Assembly: GCA_964586255.1 (NCBI GenBank) | Contig: CAZPGE010000004.1 | Coordinates: 32,693 to 96,692, forward strand | DNA length: 64,000 nt | DNA from: an uncultured Candidatus Saccharibacteria bacterium | GTDB lineage: Bacteria > Patescibacteriota > Minisyncoccia > Phycocordibacterales > UBA2100 | Reading direction: 5' to 3' | Shown here: piece by piece, positions 1-62,150 of the stretch | How the letters are laid out: the number at the start of each line of letters is the position of its first letter | How positions within the stretch are numbered: the stretch's first letter is position 1 | Translations under genes and position numbers: made by a program | Notes under the pieces: generated by a model | Seen by the model: the letters and a program-made list of their open reading frames with translations, nothing else | Database searches by the model: none | Told to the model about the DNA's origin: nothing

Positions 1-969
1 GATGAAAACCCCTCCGATGTGCTGCGCAATAACATCATCACGCTTGTCGGCCTCTTCCGCATCATGCTCGGCGGGCTCACGCCCGAGGAAGACGCCATTA
101 TCGACAAGGCCATCACCGAGACGTACGCCCTCAAAGACATCACGCCGGAGGCCAATTTCGCCGCTGTAGAGCCGCCGCTTCTCTCCGACTTTGAGCTCGT
201 GCTCTCCGGTATGGAAGGCTCAGAGAGTCTCGTGCAGCGCCTCTCCAAGTACACCAAGGGTACCTGGTCAGGCTTTATGAACAGACCGACCAACGTCGAC
301 ATGAACAAAAAGCTCGTCGTCTTTTCCGTGCGCGACATGGAAGACGACCTCAAGCCGGTCGCGATGTACATCATTACGCACCACATCTGGAATACGGTGC
401 GCAAAGAACTACGCAAGCGCCTGCTTGTCATCGATGAAGCTTGGTGGATGATGCGCTCCGAAGATACCGCATCCTTCCTTTTCTCAATTGCGAAGCGAGG
501 TCGTAAATACTATCTAGGCATCTCGACGATTACGCAGGACGTGTCCGACTTCTTGAACTCTCCGTATGGCATCCCGATGATTACAAACTCGTCGATTCAG
601 CTTCTTCTGCGCCAATCGCCAACCTCAGTCGACTTGGTGCAATCCACATTCAAACTTTCCGACGAAGAGAAGTATCTCCTTCTCGAGAGTGATGTAGGGG
701 AGGGCATCTTCTTCGCAGGTCTCAAGCATGTCGCGATTAAGGTCATCGCGTCGTACACCGAAGACCAGATTATTACTTCTGACCCGTCACAAATTCTCGC
801 CATCAAGAAGGCGAAACAAGATCTTGATGCCGTGGACACGCCGACATCCGCAGGCGCTGCTGCTGCCCCCGCACCCGCCCCGATGCTTTCTTCTGCCCCG
901 GCTGCACCGGGCGCTGACACCGCGCCGGTGGGGAAGGCGTTCAGTAGCTCTGACTTGAAAGAGGTATGA
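1..969 (+). CDS. VirB4/TraC-like type IV secretion/conjugation ATPase, C-terminal part (5' end lies outside the window); Ala/Pro-rich tail
   Basis: Reading frame is open from nt 1. Walker-B-like 'LLVIDEAWWMM', 'AKRGRKYYLGISTITQ' and the downstream pattern fit the VirB4 family C-terminal domain. The stop overlaps the next start (ATGA). Confidence 0.6.
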   Translation, partial: DENPSDVLRNNIITLVGLFRIMLGGLTPEEDAIIDKAITETYALKDITPEANFAAVEPPLLSDFELVLSGMEGSESLVQRLSKYTKGTWSGFMNRPTNVDMNKKLVVFSVRDMEDDLKPVAMYIITHHIWNTVRKELRKRLLVIDEAWWMMRSEDTASFLFSIAKRGRKYYLGISTITQDVSDFLNSPYGIPMITNSSIQLLLRQSPTSVDLVQSTFKLSDEEKYLLLESDVGEGIFFAGLKHVAIKVIASYTEDQIITSDPSQILAIKKAKQDLDAVDTPTSAGAAAAPAPAPMLSSAPAAPGADTAPVGKAFSSSDLKEV

Positions 970-3240: not shown

Positions 3241-3687
3241 ATGCACGCGCTCCGCATCACGATACAGCTCGCGGTAATCACTCTTGGCGCATGCGCCCTC
3301 GCGCTTCTCAGTGTTGATTTCGCGCACGCACAAGGCAGTTTTGTACCACTCGCACCTGCACCATCAGGCTCGAGATTGGGTCAAATCTACACTTCAAACT
3401 CTCTGACGGGATTCATCAACGGGCTTTTCACGGCAGCCATCGCGGTGGGTGCGATTCTCGCCGTGATGCGACTCGCTTTCGCAGGATACCTCTACATGAC
3501 GACCGATGCTTGGGGCCAAAAGGGAAAGGCGAAAGAGGTGATAGGAGATGTCATTATGGGGCTTCTTCTCCTCCTATCTATTTGGCTCATCTTGAGACAG
3601 ATAAATCCGAAGCTCCTCGACCTCGACATACTACAGAGCCTGAGGCCGACTTCGCAGCTTATTCAGCAAACAGAGAGAGCAACATAG
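3241..3687 (+). CDS. VirB2/TrbC-like pilin-type small membrane protein (signal peptide plus two hydrophobic helices)
   Basis: Signal peptide ending AHA|QG followed by two hydrophobic helices (GLFTAAIAVGAILAVMRLAFAGYLYM; VIGDVIMGLLLLLSIWLIL). This topology is typical of T4SS pilins. It is the last gene of the operon. Confidence 0.4.
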   Translation: MHALRITIQLAVITLGACALALLSVDFAHAQGSFVPLAPAPSGSRLGQIYTSNSLTGFINGLFTAAIAVGAILAVMRLAFAGYLYMTTDAWGQKGKAKEVIGDVIMGLLLLLSIWLILRQINPKLLDLDILQSLRPTSQLIQQTERAT

Positions 3688-5822: not shown

Positions 5823-7175
5823 ATGATGACCAATCGAGAATTATGGCAGAACGCATTGGTCCAAATAGAACTCGGGACGACGCAGGCGTCGTTTAGAACC
5901 TGGTTTCGCAATACTGACATCGCAAATCGTGACGGGGGAGTCGTCCAAGTCGCCGTCCCGTCAAAGATTGTAAAGGAGTGGCTGCTTGAAAAACACCACA
6001 AGCTTGTTTTGAAGGCACTGCGCAGTCTCGACAACACCATCCGCACCGTTGAGTACGTGGTACACCGCTCCGCGCCGAGCGCCGAGCGAAAAGCTCCGCG
6101 CGCCGAGAAGCCCCAAGAGAATGCGTCGTTCGATTTACAATCTCTCTATATAGATAAGCGCGACAACCTGAACCCGCGTTACACTTTTGAGACATTTGTC
6201 GTCGGTCCCTTCAACCAACTCGCTCACGCGGCGGCAAAAGCGGTGCTCGATAGACCCGGCCTCACGTACAATCCTCTCTTTATCTATGGCTCCACCGGGC
6301 ATGGAAAGACACATCTCATACAAGCAGTGGGCAACTACTTCAAGAAAGCGCACGCCAACAAGAAAGTGCTCTATGTCACATCGGAGCGCTTTGCGGTGGA
6401 TTACATCAACTCCGTGCGTGCGGGACGAGCCAACAACTTCAAAGACCAGTACCGTCAGTACGACGTGCTCATCATGGACGACATCCAGTTCATTGCGAAC
6501 ACAGAAAAGACGCAGGAAGAGCTCTTCCACCTCTTCAACGCACTCCACGACAACAACAAACAAATCGTGTTCTCGAGCGATAAACACCCGTCACTTCTCC
6601 CCGGCTTTGAGGAGCGCCTCAAGGGCCGCTTTGCCGCGGGCGTGATTGCTGAGATACCCGAGCCCGACGTGGAGTCACGCATCGCCATCATCAAGGCGAA
6701 GATTGAGCAGCACGGCTTCTCAATCCCTGAAGACATCATCCAATACATTGCAGAGAACGTACGGGGCAACATACGCGAACTCGAGGGGGTACTCAATATG
6801 ATCGTTTGCAAATCGCAGCTCAAGGGAAAGGCAATATCCCACGCCGACGTGCGAGCGCTCATCAAACACAACGTAAAGCCCAATAGAGGTGTCTCTATAG
6901 ACGAGGTGGTCCGCAGGATAGCGCAATACTACGAAGTGCCGGAGAAGAGCATCTACGAAAAGACTCGCAAAAAGGAGGTGGTGAAGCCCCGTCAAATAAT
7001 CATGTACATGCTCCGAGAAGAATTTAGTGTCTCGTACCCGTCGATAGGAGAGAAACTTGGGGGTCGTGACCACACCACCGTCATCCACTCGTGCGAGAAG
7101 ATAAAGGAAGAGATAAAAATGAACAACGCACTCGAGCAAGAACTCGACCACATCCGTACTCTCATCCACGCATAG
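5823..7175 (+). CDS. dnaA: chromosomal replication initiator DnaA
   Basis: AAA+ Walker A 'GSTGHGKTHL', 'VLIMDDIQF', and a C-terminal DNA-binding domain. Confidence 0.95.
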   Translation: MMTNRELWQNALVQIELGTTQASFRTWFRNTDIANRDGGVVQVAVPSKIVKEWLLEKHHKLVLKALRSLDNTIRTVEYVVHRSAPSAERKAPRAEKPQENASFDLQSLYIDKRDNLNPRYTFETFVVGPFNQLAHAAAKAVLDRPGLTYNPLFIYGSTGHGKTHLIQAVGNYFKKAHANKKVLYVTSERFAVDYINSVRAGRANNFKDQYRQYDVLIMDDIQFIANTEKTQEELFHLFNALHDNNKQIVFSSDKHPSLLPGFEERLKGRFAAGVIAEIPEPDVESRIAIIKAKIEQHGFSIPEDIIQYIAENVRGNIRELEGVLNMIVCKSQLKGKAISHADVRALIKHNVKPNRGVSIDEVVRRIAQYYEVPEKSIYEKTRKKEVVKPRQIIMYMLREEFSVSYPSIGEKLGGRDHTTVIHSCEKIKEEIKMNNALEQELDHIRTLIHA

Positions 7176-7471
7176 TGTATGAACACAGCCTTCATTGGTA
7201 TTTCCGTCGATACACAGCGCGGCGTTGTTCGTGCACCGAAAAAAGTCTCTGTATATCCTGTGGAAAACACGGGGAGAGTGGTCGCACAACTCACGAATAA
7301 GTTTGCCGGAAAAGCCATGGCGCGAGTTACCCCCGTTTCATCCCCGCTTCACGCAAGAGTTTTCAACAGGTCACGTACAACTATTTCATCTAGATTCTGC
7401 GCGATATTTCCGACTTGTCCCCGCTATACACAGGACTAATAGTAGTAATAGAATATATAAGTAAAAAGTAT
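7176..7471. promoter_or_regulatory. dnaA-dnaN intergenic region with a DnaA-box-like site and an AT-rich stretch (possible DNA-unwinding element / second oriC module)
   Basis: TGTGGAAAA (7259-7267) is the reverse complement of TTTTCCACA. AT-rich 7380-7470 lies immediately upstream of dnaN. Confidence 0.3.
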
Positions 7472-8569
7472 ATGAAGATAACAACAACAAAAGAAAAACT
7501 TCTTAACGCGATATTGATGGTAGAGAGAATCACAGGAAAAAAAGAATCTCTCCCGATACTTTCTTGTGTTCTTATCGATACGACGAGTGACATAACACTT
7601 CGCGCTACAAATCTTGAAGCCGGTATTGAAGTGACCGTTCCCGGTGAAATATCAGAAAAAGGAGTTGTAGCTGTTTCAGCTACGATACTTTCACAAACTA
7701 TCCGCTCGATAGGTGGCGATAAAATATCGCTCTCAAGCGAAGAGGGGAATCTTCTTATCGAATCTCGCGGGACCAAGACACTTATAAAGGCAGTGCCTCA
7801 TGAGGAGTTCCCTGTGCTCTCAAGTGAATCAGGAAAATCAAACGTCTCTCTTTCCAGAGAGCGACTCATTCACGGTATTCAATCGGTTTCATACGCTGCA
7901 TCACCTTCGATGATTCGGCCGGACCTCGGAAGTATCTATATTTCTATCCAGGATGGTTCGATGGTCTGTGTCGCGACCGATTCGTTTCGTCTCGCCGAGA
8001 AGGTGGTTTCTGAGACCGGTTCTAAGACGTCGGATGAACTCCTTATCCCTCTCAAGCATGCACTCGAGCTCGTCCATGTACTCGAAAAACTCGATGATGA
8101 GAAGATTTCACTCTCGGCCGATGATTCACAGCTTGTTGTTGTGGGCTCCGGGACACGGTTTGTATCTCGTGTGGTCGATGCCACATTCCCCAACTATAAA
8201 GAAATTATTCCGAAAAAGTTTACGACTGAGGCCACAATGCTCAAAAATGACCTTGGTGAGATGCTCCGCAAAGCACGCGTGTTTTCAGGGAATGAGATGC
8301 ACGTGGGCCTCCATGTGTATCCGAAGAAAAAGATTTTTACTGCGACCGCGCGTAGTGCTGATGTAGGTGAGATGTCCGACTCTATCGATGCGGCCCTCTC
8401 AGGAGAGGATCTCGATATCAATTTCCACATAGGATATCTCGCCGACTGCCTGAGCTCTATCGCATCAGATTCTGTGATACTGAGTTTCTCCGGTGCAGGC
8501 CGTCCACTCGTGATTCGTGGTGTTTCGGATAGCAATTTCACATACCTGGTGATGCCACTCAACCGATAG
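7472..8569 (+). CDS. dnaN: DNA polymerase III beta sliding clamp
   Basis: 366 aa from the ATG at 7472, with three-domain clamp-like sequence. The ORF-track start at 7415 is probably an upstream extension. Confidence 0.9.
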   Translation: MKITTTKEKLLNAILMVERITGKKESLPILSCVLIDTTSDITLRATNLEAGIEVTVPGEISEKGVVAVSATILSQTIRSIGGDKISLSSEEGNLLIESRGTKTLIKAVPHEEFPVLSSESGKSNVSLSRERLIHGIQSVSYAASPSMIRPDLGSIYISIQDGSMVCVATDSFRLAEKVVSETGSKTSDELLIPLKHALELVHVLEKLDDEKISLSADDSQLVVVGSGTRFVSRVVDATFPNYKEIIPKKFTTEATMLKNDLGEMLRKARVFSGNEMHVGLHVYPKKKIFTATARSADVGEMSDSIDAALSGEDLDINFHIGYLADCLSSIASDSVILSFSGAGRPLVIRGVSDSNFTYLVMPLNR

Positions 8570-12464: not shown

Positions 12465-12520
12465 ATTTCAGCGGAAAAAGCAAGTCCCGGCAGCCCACTA
12501 TTCTGCCCATATATGAAGCC

Positions 12521-12553
12521 AAAAAAACGGACCGTCGCGGTCTGCGACGGCCC
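12521..12553 (-). terminator. intrinsic terminator downstream of the HD-domain gene
   Basis: On the minus strand, a GGGCCGTCGC-loop-GCGACGGTCC hairpin followed by a T-run (seen as A-run 12521-12527 on the plus strand). Confidence 0.5.
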
Positions 12554-12568
12554 ACCCCGCGGGGTCTC

Positions 12569-13291
12569 CTACGCGGCCAAACGCCGCTCGACGATGCTCA
12601 TGGTGTCTTCGAATTCATGCACGAGCATGTGGTACTTCTCGGCCAGGGGCAGGATGAAGTCTTTCGTCTCGGAGAGCTTCCTCCGGATGCGTGCCTCGTC
12701 TTGTCCCCAGATCGTGATGATGTTGTGAAGTCGCTCGGGCAGCTTCACGCAGAGCGCCTTCCTCGGCGCTTTGCTGAGTCGGCGATGATATCGGCGGTCG
12801 ATATCGTCGGACGTCTCGTGGCCTCCGTTGGCGACAGGCTTGGTGACCCACCAGACGAGATTCGCAATCTTCCTGTTGAACTCCGCCGCAATGCGGTTGA
12901 AGTTCCACTCATCGGGGCAGTCCTCGATGCAGTCGTGCATGAGAATCGCACAGATGATGTTGGCGTTGCGGACCCGCATGTACACGATGGCAATCAGCGC
13001 GCTCACCCGGAGATGTTCGAAATACTGATCTCCGTTGTCGCGCATCTTGTTGCGGAAGCTCCGCTCCATCGCGTCGTAGGCGCGCTCGATGAGCAGGTAC
13101 TGCTTGCTCAAGCACGGCCAAATTTCGCCGATGCGGGCGAAGAACGACTCTTTCGTCGCCGCCTTGTCGAGCACTCCTGCAAGTTTTTCCTCGAGCCACC
13201 GGGGCAGGTTGGTCCCCGACAGCAGTTGCTTCTTGGATTCTTTTTGGCGCGTACTCGCGCGGGATTGTATACCCGAATGGCTCTGTGCCAT
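12569..13291 (-). CDS. HD-domain (p)ppGpp hydrolase-like protein (hydrolase domain of the RelA/SpoT family only; small alarmone hydrolase-like)
   Basis: 'ILMHDCIEDC' (HD motif) and 'KLPERLHNIITI' (cf. SpoT 'KLADRLHNMRT'). High-GC gene with strong GC3 bias. Confidence 0.6.
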   Translation of the reverse strand: MAQSHSGIQSRASTRQKESKKQLLSGTNLPRWLEEKLAGVLDKAATKESFFARIGEIWPCLSKQYLLIERAYDAMERSFRNKMRDNGDQYFEHLRVSALIAIVYMRVRNANIICAILMHDCIEDCPDEWNFNRIAAEFNRKIANLVWWVTKPVANGGHETSDDIDRRYHRRLSKAPRKALCVKLPERLHNIITIWGQDEARIRRKLSETKDFILPLAEKYHMLVHEFEDTMSIVERRLAA

Positions 13292-13357
13292 GGTGTCCTC
13301 CCGTCATGCCAAAATGGCTGCGGCGACCATAGCACTGAGTGACCTATGAATCAATGT

Positions 13358-13888
13358 TCACGCAGCGTTGGTGTGTACCTCTTCCACATCGTCGTACGCA
13401 TCGATTTCTTCGAGAATTTTCATGAGTGCCTCGTTCTCGCCTTCGGTGAGCTCCACGGTCGTCTTGGGTTCGTACCCTTCGGCGGTCTTTTCAAAGGCCC
13501 ACATCGCTGAACCGGGGGAAGCAAGCGCGATGCCGTTTTTACTGAGTAGGTGTTTTATCTCCTGCGCCGTCCTGTTGCGGCTATCGGTGAGGACATCTAT
13601 CAAGATAGCGGCGCCGCCCGGACCGTACGCTTCGTACGTAATGCTCTCAAGCGCAGCCGAATCCGCCGCGATACCTTTTGCCACGGCGCGGTCGATAGTG
13701 TCTTTGGGCATGTTTGTTTTCTTGCCGCGCTCAATCGCTGCGCGGAGGCCCGGCGCATTCACATCGCCCTTCGCCAGCTTGCTCTCTACCGCGATGCGCT
13801 TACCCATCTTGCCCCAGAGGTTGCTCTTGGCTTTGTCGGCAGCGCCTTTCTGTCTTTTTATTTGCGCCCATTTGTTGTGACCGGACAT
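13358..13888 (-). CDS. YebC/PmpR-family transcriptional regulator, unusually short (about 176 aa)
   Basis: 'MSGHNKWAQIKRQKGAADKAKSNLWGK' and 'YEAYGPGGAAILIDVLTDSRNRTAQEI' match YebC. The C-terminal domain is about 65 aa shorter than in E. coli YebC. Start taken at the internal ATG. Confidence 0.75.
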   Translation of the reverse strand: MSGHNKWAQIKRQKGAADKAKSNLWGKMGKRIAVESKLAKGDVNAPGLRAAIERGKKTNMPKDTIDRAVAKGIAADSAALESITYEAYGPGGAAILIDVLTDSRNRTAQEIKHLLSKNGIALASPGSAMWAFEKTAEGYEPKTTVELTEGENEALMKILEEIDAYDDVEEVHTNAA

Positions 13889-14639: not shown

Positions 14640-14670
14640 GTCGAGACGAACTCCACCGGAGTTTACGGAA

Positions 14671-14699
14671 CCGCTCACGAAAGTGAGCGGCCCCCTTTT
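14671..14699 (+). terminator. intrinsic terminator after small gene 2
   Basis: CCGCTCAC-gaaa-GTGAGCGG hairpin followed by CCCCCTTTT. Confidence 0.6.
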
Positions 14700-14767
14700 G
14701 TGGTGTGTGCCAAAAAGAAAAGGCGGCCGCGATGCGGTCGCCCTCGAGTCTCGAAGCCCTGCGGAGC

Positions 14768-15265
14768 TCACGCTCCTTGGAATGCGTCCGCTACCACCTC
14801 CTCGCGCTGCGGCGGCTCCCAGTGGGCCGGCATCACGTTGCATGACGCGAAGTAAAATCCGCAGACGAAAAATATCGTGCCGAATATATTGCACACGTTG
14901 CCCATAATCGGTGTGAAGGGAAACACATTTACGATATTGAAGAGAAGCAGGAACGCAGGCACCACCCTGAAATACCAATGCGCTTTCGCGGGGTTCATGT
15001 GGTGCGGTCGCGTGACCACCAGATGCTCAGCATTCGAGAGCGACATCATCACGCCGAGCCAAGCGAGCCCCATGAGGGGGCCGAAGAATCTCAAAAGCGC
15101 CGGCTCCGTGAGTCCCCATCCGAGAGTGTGACACAGTGCTCCCAGCGTGTAGCCCGTGCGCGAAAGGTCGAAGCAGTTGTACCCGAATCGATACTCGATA
15201 CGCCATGCAAACGGTTCGGCGATTTCGTTGATGATGCGCTCGTCAGTGCGTGCAAAGAAGCCCAT
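14768..15265 (-). CDS. hypothetical integral membrane protein
   Basis: Four to five hydrophobic helices. No recognisable family. Confidence 0.45.
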   Translation of the reverse strand: MGFFARTDERIINEIAEPFAWRIEYRFGYNCFDLSRTGYTLGALCHTLGWGLTEPALLRFFGPLMGLAWLGVMMSLSNAEHLVVTRPHHMNPAKAHWYFRVVPAFLLLFNIVNVFPFTPIMGNVCNIFGTIFFVCGFYFASCNVMPAHWEPPQREEVVADAFQGA

Positions 15266-15640
15266 GGATTCCTCCCCGATTCACTGCGGGGAATATGGCA
15301 TGTGCGAGACTGGCCTGTCAAAGGCAGTGTTTATGCACAGGGATATCCACATACTTATACACTGCATATCCACTCGAAATCCCCCGAAATAGGGGAAAGT
15401 GCTCGATGTGCATGATTGCGCACGCATATATACTCACTTTATCGATGCGCTTTACCGTGCGTCGGTCGCCACCGAGAGACAAGTAGAAATACTTTTCTCC
15501 TCGGAGGCAGTTCCCTGGGTAAGTCCATGCGCAAGCTAGAGACAATGCGGGAGCAGTCGGTCAGAGCATTGAGGTGATAGCTGTAGTACGAGGAGATCGT
15601 ATCAAGCCGGACTGGAGGTATCATTCATCCGAAATGGCCG

Positions 15641-18930: not shown

Positions 18931-19386
18931 TCAGGCGGCGATGGCGATGCGTTCGCTCGTATACATCACGCGCTGCGTGAGCCGGCGTGCGGAGTCCTCG
19001 GCGGCGAGGATGTCGAGCCAGGCCTTGGTCAGGGCGGCGTACTCGGCGTCGGCGCCGCTGGTGCCATGGCTGTAGGCGTAGAAGCCCAGATCGGCGGCCT
19101 GCTTGTAGGTCTCGAGCAAGCGGCCCTTGCCCATGTTGGCATTGAACGAGCCGTAGACCTGACCGACGACGCACCCGCAGTCGTACTTGATGTCGAGCGA
19201 GCCGCCGTCAATCCTGGAGCGCCAGCCGGGTTCGGTGTTGTCCATGAACGCGATGCCGGCCATAGCGCGCTCGTGCACGGTCGGTCCGGAAGAAGCGATT
19301 TGCAACATCTTGCAGTCCCTTTCCTGGTTGCGGGGGCTCCTAGACCCTCCAATCAAATTAGTAGCATCCCCGGGAATATCCCGCAA
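18931..19386 (-). CDS. hypothetical protein (high-GC island gene A)
   Basis: High GC (about 64%) with strong GC3. Terminator hairpin downstream (about 18878-18905). No recognisable family. Confidence 0.4.
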   Translation of the reverse strand: MRDIPGDATNLIGGSRSPRNQERDCKMLQIASSGPTVHERAMAGIAFMDNTEPGWRSRIDGGSLDIKYDCGCVVGQVYGSFNANMGKGRLLETYKQAADLGFYAYSHGTSGADAEYAALTKAWLDILAAEDSARRLTQRVMYTSERIAIAA

Positions 19387-19500: not shown

Positions 19501-19884
19501 TCAGAGAGACCTGCGCAGATGCGCTTCCCAGAAGGACTGAAGCGTGCCGTACATGGTGTTGGGATCGTTCTCATCCCTCGCAAGCCCGTAGGCGATGCCG
19601 ATGCGATACGACATGTCGGCGCTGAGCAGAGCATCAGCAAACGTGAGGCCCTCCTGGCTGATGATCAGCGCCTTGAGCCTATCCACGTCCTGGAACATTC
19701 CCGTGCGGTGCGCCGTCTCGACGACGGCAAGCATGCACTTGTGCGGGTCGGCCATGACGAGAGGGCAGCGAGATGCGACCTGCCGCCACCACGGCCGCTT
19801 CGTGTCGAAGTGGTTCGCAATACCTCTCAAGACACGGCGCCTTGCAAGGCGGTTTTCGGCTTCCTTCGCTTGAACAGCGTTCAT
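19501..19884 (-). CDS. hypothetical protein (high-GC island gene B, 127 aa)
   Basis: High-GC ORF between the two copies of the pilB 3'-end repeat. Has its own terminator. Confidence 0.4.
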   Translation of the reverse strand: MNAVQAKEAENRLARRRVLRGIANHFDTKRPWWRQVASRCPLVMADPHKCMLAVVETAHRTGMFQDVDRLKALIISQEGLTFADALLSADMSYRIGIAYGLARDENDPNTMYGTLQSFWEAHLRRSL

Positions 19885-19955: not shown

Positions 19956-21647
19956 CTACGAAATCGTCTCAAGCATGACCTCGTCGTTGAGGTCGACGAC
20001 GCGGGAGAGTTCGTCGTACGAGGTGACACCTTGGAGTATCTTCACCGCACCGTCTTGTGACATGCGGCGGATTTTCTGATGCTTCGCTGCGGCCCAGATA
20101 TCGCGTTCGCTCGATGAGTGGCGCACGCACTCTTCTATTTCTTTATCCATAAGAATCACTTCCACTACGGCGATGCGTCCTTTGTATCCGAGGCCGCCGC
20201 ATTTGTCGCAGCCTTTGGGGAGCCACATGGTGTCGCGATTTTGCGGGAGCTCATCGGCGTGCGGTATGTGCGCGAGGAGCTGCTCCATCTTCGTCTTGAT
20301 ATCGCCGGTAATCGGTGTCGGTACGCGGCACACGGGGCAGAGGCGGCGCACGAGGCGCTGCGCCATCGCGGTCGTGAGAGCAGCGCCGAGGATGTCCGGC
20401 GCGACACCCATATCGACGAGGCGGGGGAATGTACCTGCTGCATCGTTGGTGTGTAGCGTGGAGAACACGAGGTGACCGGTAAGCGATGCGTTGACCGCCG
20501 TCGAAGCGACTTCAGCATCGCGGATTTCGCCGACCATGATGATGTCGGGGTCTTGGCGGAGTGTGGAGCGGAGGCCCTGTGCAAAGGTGTAATCCCGTGA
20601 GACTTGTGTCTGCACGATACCGGGCAGGTGGTATTCGACCGGGTCTTCGATGGTGACTATCTTTATTTCCGGTGAGTGCACTTGGCGCAAGAATGCGTAG
20701 AGTGTCGTCGTCTTACCGCTGCCGGTCGGTCCTGTGTTGAGAATCATACCGTTGGGCTTTGCGATTTCTTTCGCGAAAATATCCATGAGGTATTTGTCGA
20801 AGCCGAGCGCTTCCATCGGGAGTGCAATCGTCGTCGGGTCGAGGAGGCGCATGACGATAGTCTCTGCGTACGAGCCTGGGAGTACCGATGCGCGTATTTC
20901 GACTTCTTTACCACCCACCACGATAGAGAAGCGGCCGTCTTGTGCCGCGTTTTTGATGTTGAGCTTGAGGCCCGAGAGCAGCTTGAGGCGGCTCGACACG
21001 AGTGAGTATGTGGCGGCGTCAAACATGAGCACCTCCACGAGCACGCCGTCGAGGCGATAGCGCATACGCACACCTTCTTCTTCCGGCTCGAGGTGCACGT
21101 CGGATGCACCGAGCGCGAGTGCGCCGGCCATGATGATTTCGAGCACGCGTGAGATGCGGTGCGCGTCTTTGCTGCCCGTGTGGCTCGCAATCTCTGTCTT
21201 TACATCCTGGAGCGTCTTGAGCTTCTCAAGCATTTGTTGAATCGTCTCGTTGGAGAGGGTGAGGATGCCTGCTTCCGTCTCGGTCGCGTATGAAAGGTCG
21301 TGAAAGCGGTCCCACGCGTGTTCGAGCGAGGCCTGAGAGACGATAAAGCGCCGCACCTCGTAGCCGAGGCGTTCGATAGTCTGGAGCGACTTGAGCGAAT
21401 CCTCGCGCTCTGGAGCGCGCATTCCTACGAAAATGATTTTATTCACCTTGCGAAAAGGGGCGATCTCCACCGCGCGCGCCTCGTCCTCAGGTACGAGCTT
21501 GAGCGCATCGGTATCGATGGATTTGCTCGTAAGGTCGACGTACTCGACGCCGTATCGATGCGAGAGCATCTCGGCGAGCTGCTCCTCCTCTTTTGCGCGC
21601 AGCTCAGTCAGGCGCTCCGCTGCTTTCTTGTCGTTGAACGTCGCCAT
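19956..21647 (-). CDS. pilB: type IV pilus assembly ATPase PilB (GspE family)
   Basis: 'GPTGSGKTTTL' Walker A, Asp/His boxes, and a tetracysteine 'CPVC...CDKCGG'. ATG at 21647; the ORF track extends to an upstream GTG at 21665. Confidence 0.85.
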   Translation of the reverse strand: MATFNDKKAAERLTELRAKEEEQLAEMLSHRYGVEYVDLTSKSIDTDALKLVPEDEARAVEIAPFRKVNKIIFVGMRAPEREDSLKSLQTIERLGYEVRRFIVSQASLEHAWDRFHDLSYATETEAGILTLSNETIQQMLEKLKTLQDVKTEIASHTGSKDAHRISRVLEIIMAGALALGASDVHLEPEEEGVRMRYRLDGVLVEVLMFDAATYSLVSSRLKLLSGLKLNIKNAAQDGRFSIVVGGKEVEIRASVLPGSYAETIVMRLLDPTTIALPMEALGFDKYLMDIFAKEIAKPNGMILNTGPTGSGKTTTLYAFLRQVHSPEIKIVTIEDPVEYHLPGIVQTQVSRDYTFAQGLRSTLRQDPDIIMVGEIRDAEVASTAVNASLTGHLVFSTLHTNDAAGTFPRLVDMGVAPDILGAALTTAMAQRLVRRLCPVCRVPTPITGDIKTKMEQLLAHIPHADELPQNRDTMWLPKGCDKCGGLGYKGRIAVVEVILMDKEIEECVRHSSSERDIWAAAKHQKIRRMSQDGAVKILQGVTSYDELSRVVDLNDEVMLETIS

Positions 21648-21703
21648 GGCGCTATTGTAACGCACTTCGCTCGTGAACGAGGTGTTACAATTTGCTCATC
21701 TAT

Positions 21704-32426: not shown

Positions 32427-33397
32427 TACGTTACAGAATCGACCGTCTGGCCGTTTTCATCGAGTAGACGGATGACATCGTGCGTGTTACCCCACAGCTC
32501 GACTGGTGAACCAAGGTAGAGCCGCCATGTATCAAGGGCAAAATTTGCTTCATGGCGATATGTCTGTACGCAGCCGTTGTACGAGAATGTGTTAGCGATA
32601 TATATGCGACACGCAGGTGCGAGCGATGTAGGAATGGTCGTCGGGTACGTGCACTGGGGAAGAGATTGCACATAATCTACGCAGTCACCACCGTACCGTA
32701 AAAGATTTTGATCGGTAAGCGACATGCTCTCTGCGGGTGAGGGGCATGCATTGGCGAGCGACGGCTCAAACGAGAGATTCTGTGCAAGGTATCCGGTGCA
32801 CCTGTTTTCACGGAACGAGACGCCGGCAGGGGAGAAGCCCGAAATCACAATAGCGCTCGTGCCCGGCTCAAGCGAAACAGTGCGGACGTTGTTGAGTGTG
32901 CCATGCTCGTATACCGTCGTGGCAAGAGGAATCGGAGCGATAGCTCCGGTGAGCATGCTCATGAGTGACCACCCGGCGAGAGATGCGCCTCCAGAAGCAT
33001 CGATGACGAGATATTCATTTGAAGCGGCTGCTTCTGTTGCCGCAGCGCGAGAGAGGGAGACCTTACCCGCATATGGCGACCGCCCGAGCTTAGCAACGTC
33101 TTTTTGGATTGAATCGTACTGGCGCTGCATTTCGTCGAGGCGTTCTTCGGCGCTCATGTTTTCATATGCCTCACCCTCTTGTGCGAGGCCCTCGATATCT
33201 GGGCCCTGAGGGATGGGGAGCTGCCAGGGGAGCTCAATTTTGTAGGTGGATGTGCTGGTGCCCCACAAAATGTCGATAGGATTGGCTATCGTTTTGACGA
33301 AGCTCACGATGCGCGATGCGCCACCAACCCACAGCCAGGCGCCCGCGAGAAGTATCACCATCCCAATAAGGACGTACCAGAGGACAGTGCGTACCAT
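32423..33397 (-). CDS. hypothetical membrane-anchored protein
   Basis: N-terminal TM (MVRTVLWYVLIGMVILLAGAWLWVGG). The start is taken at the internal Met so that it abuts the Mur ligase stop. Confidence 0.45.
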   Translation of the reverse strand: MVRTVLWYVLIGMVILLAGAWLWVGGASRIVSFVKTIANPIDILWGTSTSTYKIELPWQLPIPQGPDIEGLAQEGEAYENMSAEERLDEMQRQYDSIQKDVAKLGRSPYAGKVSLSRAAATEAAASNEYLVIDASGGASLAGWSLMSMLTGAIAPIPLATTVYEHGTLNNVRTVSLEPGTSAIVISGFSPAGVSFRENRCTGYLAQNLSFEPSLANACPSPAESMSLTDQNLLRYGGDCVDYVQSLPQCTYPTTIPTSLAPACRIYIANTFSYNGCVQTYRHEANFALDTWRLYLGSPVELWGNTHDVIRLLDENGQTVDSVTY

Positions 33398-58757: not shown

Positions 58758-59195
58758 ATGATAACCATTTCTCAACTTACAGAAGCGACAGCGAACTCTA
58801 TTGCCGAACTTAATACGCTCATGCGCGAACTCCGCACCGAACAATCCGGCGATGCCATTAACAGTGTCGACGACATGACGCTGCTGCTGAGCGATAAAAA
58901 TATTGTCGTCATGACGGTGAAAGACGACGAAAAGATTGTTGGTGTTGCCACTCTGTATATAGTGCCCAAAATCGGGAAGACCGTCGCGTACATCGAAGAT
59001 GTCGTCGTGAGTAGCGCGTATCGTGGACAGGGGTTGGGCGAGAAACTCGTGCGCAAAGTCATCGAAACCGCGAGAAGTAGGCATGTCAAAAGTGTAGGGC
59101 TTACCTCGCGTCCGGCACGAGAAGCAGCAAATAAGCTCTACCAAAAGATTGGCTTCAATCGCAAGGAGACGAACGTCTACAAGCTCGCTCTCTAA
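58758..59195 (+). CDS. GNAT-family N-acetyltransferase
   Basis: Acetyl-CoA binding motif 'VVVSSAYRGQGLGEKLVRKVIETAR'. Confidence 0.75.
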   Translation: MITISQLTEATANSIAELNTLMRELRTEQSGDAINSVDDMTLLLSDKNIVVMTVKDDEKIVGVATLYIVPKIGKTVAYIEDVVVSSAYRGQGLGEKLVRKVIETARSRHVKSVGLTSRPAREAANKLYQKIGFNRKETNVYKLAL

Positions 59196-59199
59196 CCAT

Positions 59200-60354
59200 A
59201 TGGCGCGGGTGAAGATAAGCGAATATAAGGCGAAGAAGATTCTCTTTGGGGAGGCGTACGATGGTCTACAGTTGCGCACAGGCGAGTCCATGAATATCCC
59301 GGATGGACACTGGGTGGCGAAAGTCGACCAGGGCGTCAAGAAGCGCTTCAAGCAAGGGCTTGTCGCTGTCGACAAACCGAAGGCTGAGATACTCACTGCA
59401 ATCGCCGAGTGGGAGAAAAAAGGATTCACGCAATTCGTCCTTGAGCCGTATTTTGAACACGAGGAGACAGAGGAGCAGTACCTCTCTCTCGAGAGAGTCC
59501 GAGGAGGAGTGCGCGTGCTGCATGCGTCGGGAGGAGGGATCAATATAGAGGAGCACCCTGAAGCGGTCGGACGTTACATTATATCTGAGGAAGCTGATAT
59601 CGCAGGAATTGCGAAAAAGACCAAGGTTCCGGAGTCTTTCCTGTCGCGCCTGTACGCAATATTCAATGCGAGCCACTTTTCATTCTTGGAGATTAATCCG
59701 CTCATCGTGCGAAGTGAAGACGTGTATGCGCTCGATGCGGCCGTGCTCGTCGACAGTGCGGCGGAGTTTTTCGTTTCTGGCATCTGGAGCGACGATGACG
59801 TCGTGAAGACAAAAGCGAAACATGTCGCCGAGGAGCGCGTAGAAGCGCTTGCGGCGACCACACCCGCGGCTCTCAAGCTCTCCGTAATCAATCCCAACGG
59901 CGCGCTCTTCTTCCTGCTCTCAGGTGGAGGCGGAAGTATCGTAATTGCTGATGAGGCACAGCTTGAGGGTGTCGGACACCTCATAGCGAATTACGGAGAA
60001 TACAGCGGCGGTCCGACTCGCGAAGAAACATACCTGTATTCAAAAGAGATAATCGGCATGATGATTGAATCGAAGGCGCACAAGAAAGCGCTCGTGATTG
60101 CGGGCGGGGTCGCAAATTTTACCGATGTGAAAAAGACTTTTCTCGGTATCATAGATGCGCTCAAAGAGCGCTCGGAAGAATTGCGGACGCAGGGTACAAA
60201 GATATTTGTTCGGCGTGGTGGTCCCAATGAAAAGGTGGGCTTGCAGCTCATGCGCGATTTCTTACAAAACGAAGGGCTTCTAGGCGCAGTCTACGGCTCG
60301 GACGTCGTCATTACACAAGCGGTGGACGATGCCATTCAATATATCCGCATATGA
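59200..60354 (+). CDS. aclB: ATP-citrate lyase beta subunit (ATP-grasp, citrate-binding)
   Basis: Strong similarity to the ACLY N-terminal half: 'FSFLEINPLIV...VYALDAAVLVD', 'ANYGEYSGGPTREETYLYSKEI', 'IAGGVANFTDVKKTF', 'IFVRRGGPNEKVGLQLM'. ATG at 59200; the ORF track extends upstream. Confidence 0.8.
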   Translation: MARVKISEYKAKKILFGEAYDGLQLRTGESMNIPDGHWVAKVDQGVKKRFKQGLVAVDKPKAEILTAIAEWEKKGFTQFVLEPYFEHEETEEQYLSLERVRGGVRVLHASGGGINIEEHPEAVGRYIISEEADIAGIAKKTKVPESFLSRLYAIFNASHFSFLEINPLIVRSEDVYALDAAVLVDSAAEFFVSGIWSDDDVVKTKAKHVAEERVEALAATTPAALKLSVINPNGALFFLLSGGGGSIVIADEAQLEGVGHLIANYGEYSGGPTREETYLYSKEIIGMMIESKAHKKALVIAGGVANFTDVKKTFLGIIDALKERSEELRTQGTKIFVRRGGPNEKVGLQLMRDFLQNEGLLGAVYGSDVVITQAVDDAIQYIRI

Positions 60355-62150
60355 AAACTATACTTGAAGAAGTGAGAGCGGGTGCAGACGGAATCCTCGT
60401 CGTCGGAAATCATCCGCAGATTGTGCAGGCGATTCTCGATTTCGATTACTTGGCAAGCAAGGAGAGCCCTTCGGTCGTCGGAGTTATCTCGGGTACACGC
60501 AAAGCGCAAAAGTTCTTTTACGGTACGGGAGAAGTGCTCGTACCGTGCTTCGGCAGTGTTCGTTTGATGCCTGAGACGCTGCGACCGCGTGTGAAATGGA
60601 TGCTTAACGCACAGTCGGGTCGGCGTACCTTCGAGTCGACCGTCGCCTTCTTTGAGACTTTTCCCGACGCACTCGGAGGTCACTTGTTTGCGGAAAACGT
60701 GCCGGAGATTCATGCGACCGAATTAATACGCCGTTTCGGAAAAAAATATGTCATCGCGGGACCGTCCGGCGTGGGCATCCTCGTGTCCGGTGCACTCAAG
60801 CTAGGTGCGATAGGCGGTACCGACGCGTCGCAAATACGAGCGAGCAAGCTCGCATCGCGGGGCTCTGTCGCCGTCGTATCGACTTCAGGGGGCATGACCA
60901 ACGAACTTATTCGTGCGGTCTCGGGTGCTGGAAAACGCGTGTCATTCTCGATATCGATAGGCGGAGACCGGTTCCCAGTGACAGGTCTCTCTGACGTGCT
61001 CCGCTTGGCTGAGAGCGACGTTGATACAAAAGCCATCGTCTATTTCGGGGAGCTCGGTGGCTCTGACGAATACGAGATAGTGGAGATGCTTGAGAAAAAA
61101 GAGCTGACGAAACCCATAATTTGTTACATTGCGGGAGTTATCGACGAAGCATTCGATGAGCACATGCAGTTTGGACACGCGAAGGCGCTCGTGGCTACAA
61201 AGGACCAAAGTGCGCGCGCGAAGCGAAGCGCTCTCGCGTCGGCTGGTGCCACGGCGCCCGAGACATTCCCCGGGTTTCTCAAGGCACTTACTGAGCTGCC
61301 GCTTCCGGATATTCGTGATACCGTCGTGGATATGGATCCACTTGAGAATCGTAAAGCGAGCATCCTTTCGACGAGAGAGATAGTTGATTTGGATACAGTG
61401 CCTGTTTTTGTACAAGCAGGTGCACTCGTAAAGCAAAAAGAAAATGCATTTGCGGGGGCGACGATGCAGGCTCTTCTCGGGCATGAAGTGTCGCCTGAGA
61501 CTGCTGCATTTGTAGAAAATATATTTGAACTCCTTATCGACCATGGGGGCCATGTCTCCGGCGCAGTCAATACGATGGTGAGTGCTCGCGCAGGAAAGGA
61601 CATGGTGTCGTCGCTCGCATCAGGTCTCCTTACGATAGGTCCACGCTTTGGCGGCGCGGTCAATGAAGCGGCGCGTGCATGGCTCGAGGGCAGCGAATCG
61701 GCCGTGCCCGCGATGGAGTATGTGGAGAAAAAGACTCGTGCGGGAGCACTCCTGAGCGGCATTGGCCACCGCAAATACCGCGTAGGGATTCCTGATCCGC
61801 GTGTTGCAGCGCTTTCAGAGTTTGCATCGCTGCTCAAAAAGCATCCATACTACGATTTTGCACGCGAAGTGGAGAAGGTGACGACCGGGAAGAACGGCAA
61901 CCTCATACTCAATGTCGATGGTGTTATGGCCGCGCTCCTTCTCGACATGCTCGCCGAGAAAGAAGGCGTATCAAAAGAAGAGCTTCACGAGCTTGTGGAT
62001 GCGGAATTTTTCAACGCACTCTTCATAATTCCGCGATCTGTGGGCTTTATCGCTCATTTTCTCGAACAGAAACGCAACGACGAAGGGCTCTTCCGTCTTC
62101 CTGACGAGCTCCTCTTTGAGAAGAAAAGCGAAAAAAAGAAGAAGAATTAG
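60351..62150 (+). CDS. aclA: ATP-citrate lyase alpha subunit (CoA-binding + phosphohistidine domain + citrate-synthase-like C-terminal domain)
   Basis: 'STSGGMTNE' (SucD-like), phospho-His loop 'QFGHAKALV', C-terminal 'SGIGHRKYRVGIPDPRV' (citrate-synthase-like). Start overlaps the aclB stop (ATGA). Confidence 0.8.
   Translation: MKTILEEVRAGADGILVVGNHPQIVQAILDFDYLASKESPSVVGVISGTRKAQKFFYGTGEVLVPCFGSVRLMPETLRPRVKWMLNAQSGRRTFESTVAFFETFPDALGGHLFAENVPEIHATELIRRFGKKYVIAGPSGVGILVSGALKLGAIGGTDASQIRASKLASRGSVAVVSTSGGMTNELIRAVSGAGKRVSFSISIGGDRFPVTGLSDVLRLAESDVDTKAIVYFGELGGSDEYEIVEMLEKKELTKPIICYIAGVIDEAFDEHMQFGHAKALVATKDQSARAKRSALASAGATAPETFPGFLKALTELPLPDIRDTVVDMDPLENRKASILSTREIVDLDTVPVFVQAGALVKQKENAFAGATMQALLGHEVSPETAAFVENIFELLIDHGGHVSGAVNTMVSARAGKDMVSSLASGLLTIGPRFGGAVNEAARAWLEGSESAVPAMEYVEKKTRAGALLSGIGHRKYRVGIPDPRVAALSEFASLLKKHPYYDFAREVEKVTTGKNGNLILNVDGVMAALLLDMLAEKEGVSKEELHELVDAEFFNALFIIPRSVGFIAHFLEQKRNDEGLFRLPDELLFEKKSEKKKKN

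Follow-up and report, generated by a model that had tools for sequence, protein, structure and literature searches.

What does a stand-alone HD-domain gene do in the reduced genome of a Candidate Phyla Radiation (CPR) bacterium, and how did it come to be there? The question is posed by a 64,000-nucleotide (nt) stretch of DNA, hereafter the window, from an uncultured Candidatus Saccharibacteria bacterium (GTDB lineage Bacteria; Patescibacteriota; Minisyncoccia; Phycocordibacterales; UBA2100), which spans positions 32,693 to 96,692 of contig CAZPGE010000004.1 in assembly GCA_964586255.1. The original prediction, made from the sequence alone, saw in the interval 12465-13357 a GC-rich gene for a 240-residue protein resembling hydrolases of the alarmone (p)ppGpp, and proposed that the gene had been acquired horizontally. 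The first of these ideas holds up well, the second does not. The protein is a stand-alone small alarmone hydrolase (SAH) that most likely converts (p)ppGpp to GDP or GTP and pyrophosphate, and its gene appears to be a vertically inherited housekeeping gene of the Parcubacteria (Minisyncoccota), a combined reading to which we assign a probability of roughly 0.65. The gene and the parts of its product are laid out as follows.

12569..13291, minus strand: coding sequence of the 240-residue stand-alone hydrolase of the RelA/SpoT homologue (RSH) type, a small alarmone hydrolase (open reading frame, HD_4 and TIGR00691 matches, AlphaFold2 and Foldseek, and the ratio of nonsynonymous to synonymous substitution, dN/dS)
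12635..13081, minus strand: HD_4 hydrolase domain, residues 71-219, with motifs HD1-HD6 (Pfam envelope, alignment to Rel, residue counts)
12734..12736, minus strand: GAG codon for Glu186, which replaces the metal-ligand Asp of HD5 (read from the sequence)
13112..13216, minus strand: family-specific N-terminal helices, about residues 26-60 (AlphaFold2 model; a conserved block; outside the stretch that aligns to Rel structures in the PDB)
13220-13291, minus strand: disordered basic tail, residues 1-24 (secondary structure and predicted local distance difference test, pLDDT, of the AlphaFold2 model)

The identity of the domain follows from profile searches. Pfam HD_4 (PF13328) matches across positions 1-152 of 156 with 41.2 bits against a cutoff of 27.2 (E 1.9e-10), and is the only significant Pfam match in the protein. 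The NCBIfam model TIGR00691 (spoT_relA) matches at E 1.6e-15, covering only the first 148 of its 687 positions, and in a hidden Markov model (HMM) made from 73 long RSHs, only positions 22-202 out of 743 align to the protein. By Pfam, TIGRFAM and the long-RSH HMM, the 240 residues hold no synthetase, TGS or ACT part. The AlphaFold2 model, built on 23 family sequences, has a pLDDT of 87.2 and a predicted TM-score of 0.83, with only residues 1-24 disordered, and the Foldseek matches in the PDB at E<=0.001, as well as the top 45 overall, are without exception Rel, RelA, SpoT, SAH, Mesh1 or (p)ppApp hydrolase structures. Since a hydrolase domain standing alone, free of synthetase, TGS and ACT regions, is what defines the SAH architecture, the profile matches and the predicted model together identify the protein as the all-helical RelA/SpoT hydrolase fold in SAH form. 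The SAH-like, synthetase-free assignment given in the original prediction is thereby borne out by profiles, PDB sequence matches, predicted fold and catalytic motifs alike; the two motifs it quoted, LMHDCIEDC and KLPERLHNI, lie at residues 117-125 and 183-191 of a protein of the stated length.

The catalytic center tells a similar story, with one exception. Six motifs, HD1 to HD6, have been defined for SAHs and Rel enzymes (PMC9293644), and five of them are intact here: HD1 (R84), HD2 (H93), HD3 (H119-D120), HD4 (E123-D124) and HD6 (N190). R84, H93, H119, D120 and E123 are invariant among 157 family members, and four further positions are nearly so or at least strongly preferred (K183 in 153, N190 in 152, T193 in 135 and D124 in 133 of the 157). 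The exception is HD5, which reads Glu186-Arg187 rather than Asp-Arg. The conservation of catalytic residues on which the original prediction had staked itself is thus found at HD1-HD4 and HD6, while the HD5 Asp has given way to Glu. With this residue set, the protein would act as a metal-dependent 3'-pyrophosphohydrolase and so lower (p)ppGpp: H93, H119, D120 and E186 would coordinate the metal, the E123-D124 pair would bind a second metal or activate water, and R84, N190 and T193 would hold the guanine. Candidates for a dimer interface are the N-terminal helices, two in number, that are specific to the family; helices at the N-terminus have this role in other SAHs (PMC9293644).

The protein has many relatives. 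A word-indexed search returned 22 close ones of 44-96% identity, all of them stand-alone HD_4 proteins of 164-253 residues, and a HMMER scan of the family profile against 1.84 billion cluster representatives found at least 143 clusters (at 50% identity) with E<=1e-30. Nearly all of these clusters are 200-250 residues long, and most are matched from about profile position 26 to about 232. The matched range, positions 26-232 across the family, thus takes in the N-terminal helices, where a block of the form NLPxWLxxKL...FFARIGEI is conserved. Every member with a taxonomic name belongs to Candidatus Kaiserbacteria, Minisyncoccia or the "Patescibacteria group", and the DnaA, RuvB and citrate-lyase proteins of the window likewise cluster with proteins of "Parcubacteria group bacterium Athens0416_74" and of Minisyncoccota metagenome-assembled genomes (MAGs). 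A scan of genome contigs with the family alignment gave, among the matches listed, only proteins of 26-36% identity, picked up through the long-RSH motif KL[A]DRLHN. In databases the family goes under "HD domain-containing protein" or under misleading bifunctional names, and no relevant literature was found on any member. It appears, then, to be a large, experimentally uncharacterized SAH family confined to the Parcubacteria or this part of the CPR. The interest of the locus is modest and lies chiefly in this family; a demonstration that the genomes carrying it are hydrolase-only would raise it. A different stand-alone HD_4 protein, 234 residues long and 29% identical to the query, is encoded in another Patescibacteria MAG (L046, 9890-10594, plus strand), so that more than one kind of SAH-like protein occurs in the CPR.

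By sequence, the hydrolase domain of the family is closer to the long Rel/SpoT enzymes than to the characterized SAHs, with the named SAH subfamilies represented by their PDB structures. In the PDB it matches the hydrolase domain of Rel from mycobacteria best (2e-13 for the single sequence and 4e-24 for the profile of the family), then Rel of S. aureus and B. subtilis, SpoT and RelSeq; SAHs rank after the long Rel enzymes in the profile search, with RelH at 1.5e-15, Mesh1 at 1e-12 and PaSAH at 3e-5. The long enzymes of known structure (M. tuberculosis and M. smegmatis Rel, 5XNX and 8FR8; RelSeq, 1VJ7; A. baumannii SpoT, 7QPR) share the fold, are identical at HD1-HD4 and HD6, and have the same "VTK" Lys and "RLHN" block that the query retains. 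The query differs from them in lacking the synthetase, TGS, helical and ACT regions, in the Glu-Arg of HD5 and an acidic residue where they have Lys after the HD1 Arg, and in the two-helix N-terminal extension specific to its family. The SAHs of known structure (RelH of C. glutamicum and L. levettii, 7QOC/7QOD/7QOE; PaSAH, 6YVC; TdActApo2, 7P1Y; Aph1 of B. caccae, 7SMG) are, like the query, single-domain RSH hydrolases of about 180-240 residues with the same fold and, the Glu of HD5 aside, the same set of catalytic motifs, and the query model superposes on them with TM-scores, normalized to the target, of 0.64-0.73. Their sequence similarity to the query is far weaker than that of the long RSHs (7e-9 for TdActApo2; Aph1 was undetected by sequence). 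Within the CPR itself, Collierbacteria and Woesebacteria of the Microgenomates carry long RSHs of about 600 residues whose HD_4 domain is about 32% identical to the query, no closer than actinobacterial Rel proteins; these have a RelA_SpoT (PF04607) region, sometimes with TGS, and represent another lineage and another family. About 10 members of this Microgenomates family (P0185-P0255; L050, 9800-11617, plus strand) have no precomputed PF04607 match. By eye, the synthetase motifs of L050 look degenerate; it shows, for instance, VEVAFTTRK at the place where EVQIRT would be expected.

The claim of horizontal acquisition fits poorly with where the gene lies. The order yebC, SAH, glutaredoxin gene (grx), VIT1, ruvC recurs in the contigs of orthologs at 96% (L001-L003) and 87% identity (L090), and the SAH gene stands directly or almost directly after yebC at 76% (L091), 55% (L093) and 52% (L089), with ruvC following it in the last two; the yebC-ruvC slot is thus occupied across five levels of divergence. 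The contig at 71% identity (L092) has no Pfam-annotated neighbors and is uninformative on synteny. More distant family members sit elsewhere, in the arrangements TGT-SAH-uvrB, ychF-SAH-leuS and gltX-SAH-M23 peptidase. The wider neighborhood in the window consists of core genes (PBP1A, dnaN and dnaA), and no integrase, tRNA, transposase or other mobility gene lies beside the hydrolase gene.

The composition of the gene is unusual in a more restricted sense than was first supposed. GC content is uniform at about 54% from one end of the window to the other, and therefore this is not a low-GC genome that carries a GC-rich island. The hydrolase gene has a GC content of 0.584 against a gene mean of 0.544 (z 1.3), and the interval 12465-13357, at 0.580, falls in the top 5% of windows of its size. 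The spacer upstream of the gene is at 0.53, and the downstream spacer reaches 0.587 only because the terminator stem sits there. That the gene and its flanks are markedly GC-richer than their surroundings was therefore an overstatement, while the reported bias at third codon positions (GC3) is real: GC3 is 0.80 against 0.60 ± 0.064 (z 3.1), second highest among 64 open reading frames (ORFs), and codon usage stands apart from that elsewhere in the window with z 4.9 against synonymous resampling, third of 49 after the gene for a type II/IV secretion ATPase and a small neighboring ORF. A quantitative outlier test thus singles out the gene by GC3 and codon usage, with its total GC a mild outlier only. 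Codon bias from translational optimization was considered as a cause and set aside, as the ORFs of a presumed ribosomal-protein block, assigned without a family search, have GC3 values of only about 0.55-0.60. The excess is shared by the orthologs: in most of their loci the hydrolase gene has the highest or nearly the highest GC3 (0.78 against 0.66-0.74; 0.85 against 0.76-0.84; 0.74 against 0.56-0.59; 0.70 against a mean of 0.61), with a slight excess in L089 (0.69 against 0.65). In a genome of 38% GC it is still raised at far lower values (0.33 against 0.27, with a gene GC of 0.39 against 0.38 for the genome), and the gene therefore follows the composition of its host. High GC3 is a heritable property of this gene.

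Its substitution pattern shows that the gene is under purifying selection, with dN/dS of 0.065 against a 96%-identical ortholog (L003) and 0.09 against the 87% ortholog (L090); it is somewhat more relaxed than yebC, ruvC and PBP1A, which have values of 0.01-0.03. Synonymous divergence (dS) is itself low. Against L003 it is 0.34, with 0.46-1.19 for the neighbors, and against L090 it is 0.88, with 1.16-3.3 for the neighbors, so that in two independent comparisons the hydrolase gene has diverged at synonymous sites 2-3x less than the genes around it, and nucleotide identity is raised within the coding sequence only. A recent, gene-sized recombination could have lowered dS against L003, but is unlikely, since against L090, too, its dS is the lowest among the five genes compared. 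An overlapping gene was likewise considered as an explanation: an antisense ORF of 241 codons (12617..13342, plus strand) runs in the codon-complementary frame. It is interrupted in the 96%-identical L001 and again in L087, and collapses in L004; it is open in the window because the hydrolase gene uses no TTA, CTA or TCA codons, and we judge it to be a by-product and not a gene. The pattern suggests a constraint on synonymous sites that is peculiar to this gene, and not a foreign origin. The conserved slot, a GC3 excess that orthologs share and that tracks host GC, the absence of flanking mobility genes and membership in a large Parcubacteria-specific family speak against the proposed acquisition; most likely the gene is vertically inherited and long resident, and was not acquired horizontally, at least not recently.

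Several observations weigh against reading the protein as an ordinary (p)ppGpp hydrolase. At the HD5 site, Asp is found in 142 of the 157 family members and Glu in only 13, and all 73 long RSHs have Asp-Arg; in solved SAH structures this Asp is a direct Mn2+ ligand (PMC9293644). Conceivably, the substitution has left a catalytically impaired pseudo-enzyme that serves as a regulatory or binding protein. We consider this very improbable. Glu retains the carboxylate, dN/dS is about 0.07-0.1, and the remaining catalytic residues are invariant within the subclade in which Glu is fixed at HD5, whose members are 50-96% identical. Of the 13 sequences with Glu, ten come from the query and its closest kin in the A1 alignment (P0001-P0003, P0005-P0009 and P0013), where identity falls to about 50%; three more (P0028, P0031 and P0054) are without placement, and P0004, at 76% identity, keeps the Asp. 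Because Glu at HD5 persists in the query and in relatives to about 50% identity, it appears to be a conservative substitution kept under selection, not decay, and the subclade offers a natural test of what the metal site of an RSH hydrolase requires. A further departure is an acidic residue following the HD1 Arg, with either Asp or Glu in 110 of the 157 sequences of the family; Lys predominates here in long RSHs, as in RelSeq, whose K45 hydrogen-bonds the substrate (PMC9293644). With an acidic residue in place of a substrate-contacting Lys, substrate preference may therefore differ from that of the long RSHs, and no enzymology exists for any member of the family. One could imagine a phosphatase like metazoan Mesh1 (3NQW, 3NR1, 5VXA), acting on NADPH or other 3'-monophosphates instead of cleaving pyrophosphate. 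Mesh1 is also a stand-alone RSH hydrolase fold with the HD and ED motifs, and its structures are among the Foldseek and profile matches, but its similarity to the query is far weaker than that of Rel (E 0.26 with the single sequence, 1e-12 with the profile). The determinant that makes Mesh1 a 3'-phosphatase is Asp91 (PMC11554896). In an hhalign comparison with a human MESH1 sequence entered by hand, Lys151 of the query falls at this position; Lys is found there in 130 of the 157 family members, with Asp never among the residues listed, and in 62 of the 71 long RSHs where the motif was found. Judged from this residue, a 3'-pyrophosphate substrate is favored, and a Mesh1-like activity seems highly unlikely.

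A broader objection concerns the source of the substrate. Two HMMs, one from the 73 long RSHs and one from 67 Microgenomates RSHs, were run against six-frame translations of the window, of 20 kb of additional flank on its contig and of loci from eight further contigs with a family member (in all about 209 kb, overlaps included). Neither model detected anything beyond the hydrolase domain. No RelA_SpoT domain turns up in Pfam scans of 45 ORFs of the window or in the annotations precomputed for its flanks. An SAH in a genome without a synthetase would act on alarmones from outside, in salvage or detoxification and not as the counterpart of a synthetase in a stringent-response cycle. An episymbiont could import (p)ppGpp along with the nucleotides of its host, or be exposed to (p)ppApp and further pyrophosphorylated compounds that the toxins of competitors make. 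The lack of any RelA_SpoT, TGS or ACT signal in the scanned 209 kb favors this, and so does the residue that the family has next to the HD1 Arg, which differs from the substrate-contacting one of long RSHs. SAH-only organisms are known, among them certain archaea, animals and Rickettsia conorii (PMC3153485), phage and bacterial SAHs neutralize the products of toxic small alarmone synthetases (toxSAS) (PMC7229694), and no relevant literature was found on alarmones or the stringent response in Parcubacteria, Patescibacteria or the CPR. In the source organism, however, the search for a synthetase that the original prediction had called for covered 84 kb of a metagenomic contig of 178,812 bp; none turned up there, which carries little weight against a genome of about 1 Mb, so that absence of a synthetase is not established, nor is the source of the presumed (p)ppGpp. 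A search with the C-terminal part of Collierbacteria RSHs recovered only the Microgenomates-type family and is uninformative on synthetases in Parcubacteria. Moreover, the Microgenomates, also CPR, do have long RSHs with a RelA_SpoT domain, and the guanine-side motifs (HD1 Arg, HD6 Asn and Thr193) are all retained in the query. We therefore hold the idea of a hydrolase without a partner synthetase to be rather unlikely, and its stronger form, in which the family-bearing Parcubacteria have no synthetase at all and the hydrolase, with its Glu at HD5 and acidic residue after HD1, is dedicated to foreign alarmones, to be slightly more doubtful still. If true, obligate episymbionts would be drawing on the hydrolase alone out of the stringent-response toolkit; the substrate would then come from the host or from attackers, with a bearing on how episymbionts handle scavenged nucleotides. 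Two other alternatives concern origin and context. Recent horizontal acquisition of a compositionally foreign gene could draw on its GC3 and codon usage, on the generally patchy, transfer-shaped distribution of bacterial SAHs (PMC3153485) and on the other gene contexts of distant family members. Set against the yebC-ruvC slot filled in relatives down to 52% identity, orthologs with the same excess over their own loci (ameliorated, at 0.39 GC, in the 38% genome), a total GC only mildly raised, no adjoining mobility genes and exclusively Parcubacteria or Patescibacteria names within the family, it has very little to recommend it. Still less probable is an antitoxin of a toxSAS toxin-antitoxin pair or a phage-derived anti-defense SAH. 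SAHs of the PbcSpo and PaSpo subfamilies do play such roles (PMC7229694), and there are weak PHROG matches to generic HD hydrolases (phrog_990, 1.5e-14; phrog_15275, 4e-11). Yet no PF04607 or small alarmone synthetase gene adjoins a family member in any context examined, PADLOC gives no match, and therefore such a role is unlikely; the neighbors, moreover, are the core genes yebC, grx, ruvC, PBP1A and dnaN/dnaA.

The favored reading, a resident (p)ppGpp hydrolase, leaves the matter of how the gene is expressed, for which three further elements are relevant.

13297..13301, minus strand: Shine-Dalgarno sequence GGAGG, 5 nt 5' of the ATG (read from the sequence)
12517..12558, minus strand: intrinsic-terminator-like hairpin and T-tract (hairpin prediction and folding)
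13358..13888, minus strand: short yebC of 176 residues, the 5' neighbor and possible co-transcribed partner (Pfam, NCBIfam, conserved adjacency)

The hydrolase ORF starts with ATG, and the N-terminus that it specifies is shared by the orthologs P0001-P0004 in the form MAQS, MAES or MANS. Past the stop codon, a GC-rich stem (12558..12524, minus strand) begins after 11 nt and leads into a run of T; its folding energy is -27.7 kcal/mol, with z -2.4 against shuffled sequences, in agreement with the early suggestion that the gene ends in a terminator of its own. No terminator is predicted in the 66-nt spacer between yebC and the hydrolase gene, and the two genes are also adjacent in L001-L003, L089, L091 and L093. 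The hydrolase gene may thus be co-transcribed with yebC upstream, and transcription would end at the terminator of the hydrolase gene. The yebC gene is itself short: of the 245 positions in the YebC/PmpR model, it covers about 1-137 only. The 176-residue form is found in all relatives examined, and a mechanically called, TTG-started ORF of 266 residues over-extends it.

Several features elsewhere in the window were observed in passing. The dnaA/dnaN genes (5823-8569) lie about 4-5 kb from the hydrolase gene; a low-GC stretch (0.455) occurs at about 7000-8000, where the cumulative GC skew turns upward, and the region is probably that of the replication origin. Within it, dnaN (7415-8569, plus strand) is a compositional outlier in the direction opposite to the hydrolase gene, with a GC3 of 0.45. 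High GC3 values (0.72-0.84) are found in the T2SSE-type ATPase gene and the two small unannotated ORFs beside it (18931-19386, 19501-19884 and 19956-21665, all on the minus strand), with codon-usage z of 5.2-5.6 for two of the three. An insertion of about 680 bp at ~14650-15330 sets the window apart from the 96%-identical relatives L001 and L002; it holds an ORF of 165 codons (14768-15265, minus strand) with a GC3 of 0.72 and no Pfam or PADLOC match. At and beyond the start of the window (19-969 and 3241-3687, plus strand; L095, 5842-8975) lies a cluster resembling a type IV secretion system, with genes for a TraG P-loop ATPase, a T4SS pilin and PrgI-like and TraC-like proteins, together with several large ORFs that match no family. 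Near the other end, two genes (59149-60354 and 60351-62150, both on the plus strand) form an ATP-citrate-lyase-like pair, the first encoding ATP-grasp and Citrate_bind domains and the second Ligase_CoA and a citrate synthase C-terminal domain; their relatives in Parcubacteria MAGs are annotated as "ATP citrate (pro-S)-lyase", an unexpected central-carbon enzyme for a reduced CPR genome.

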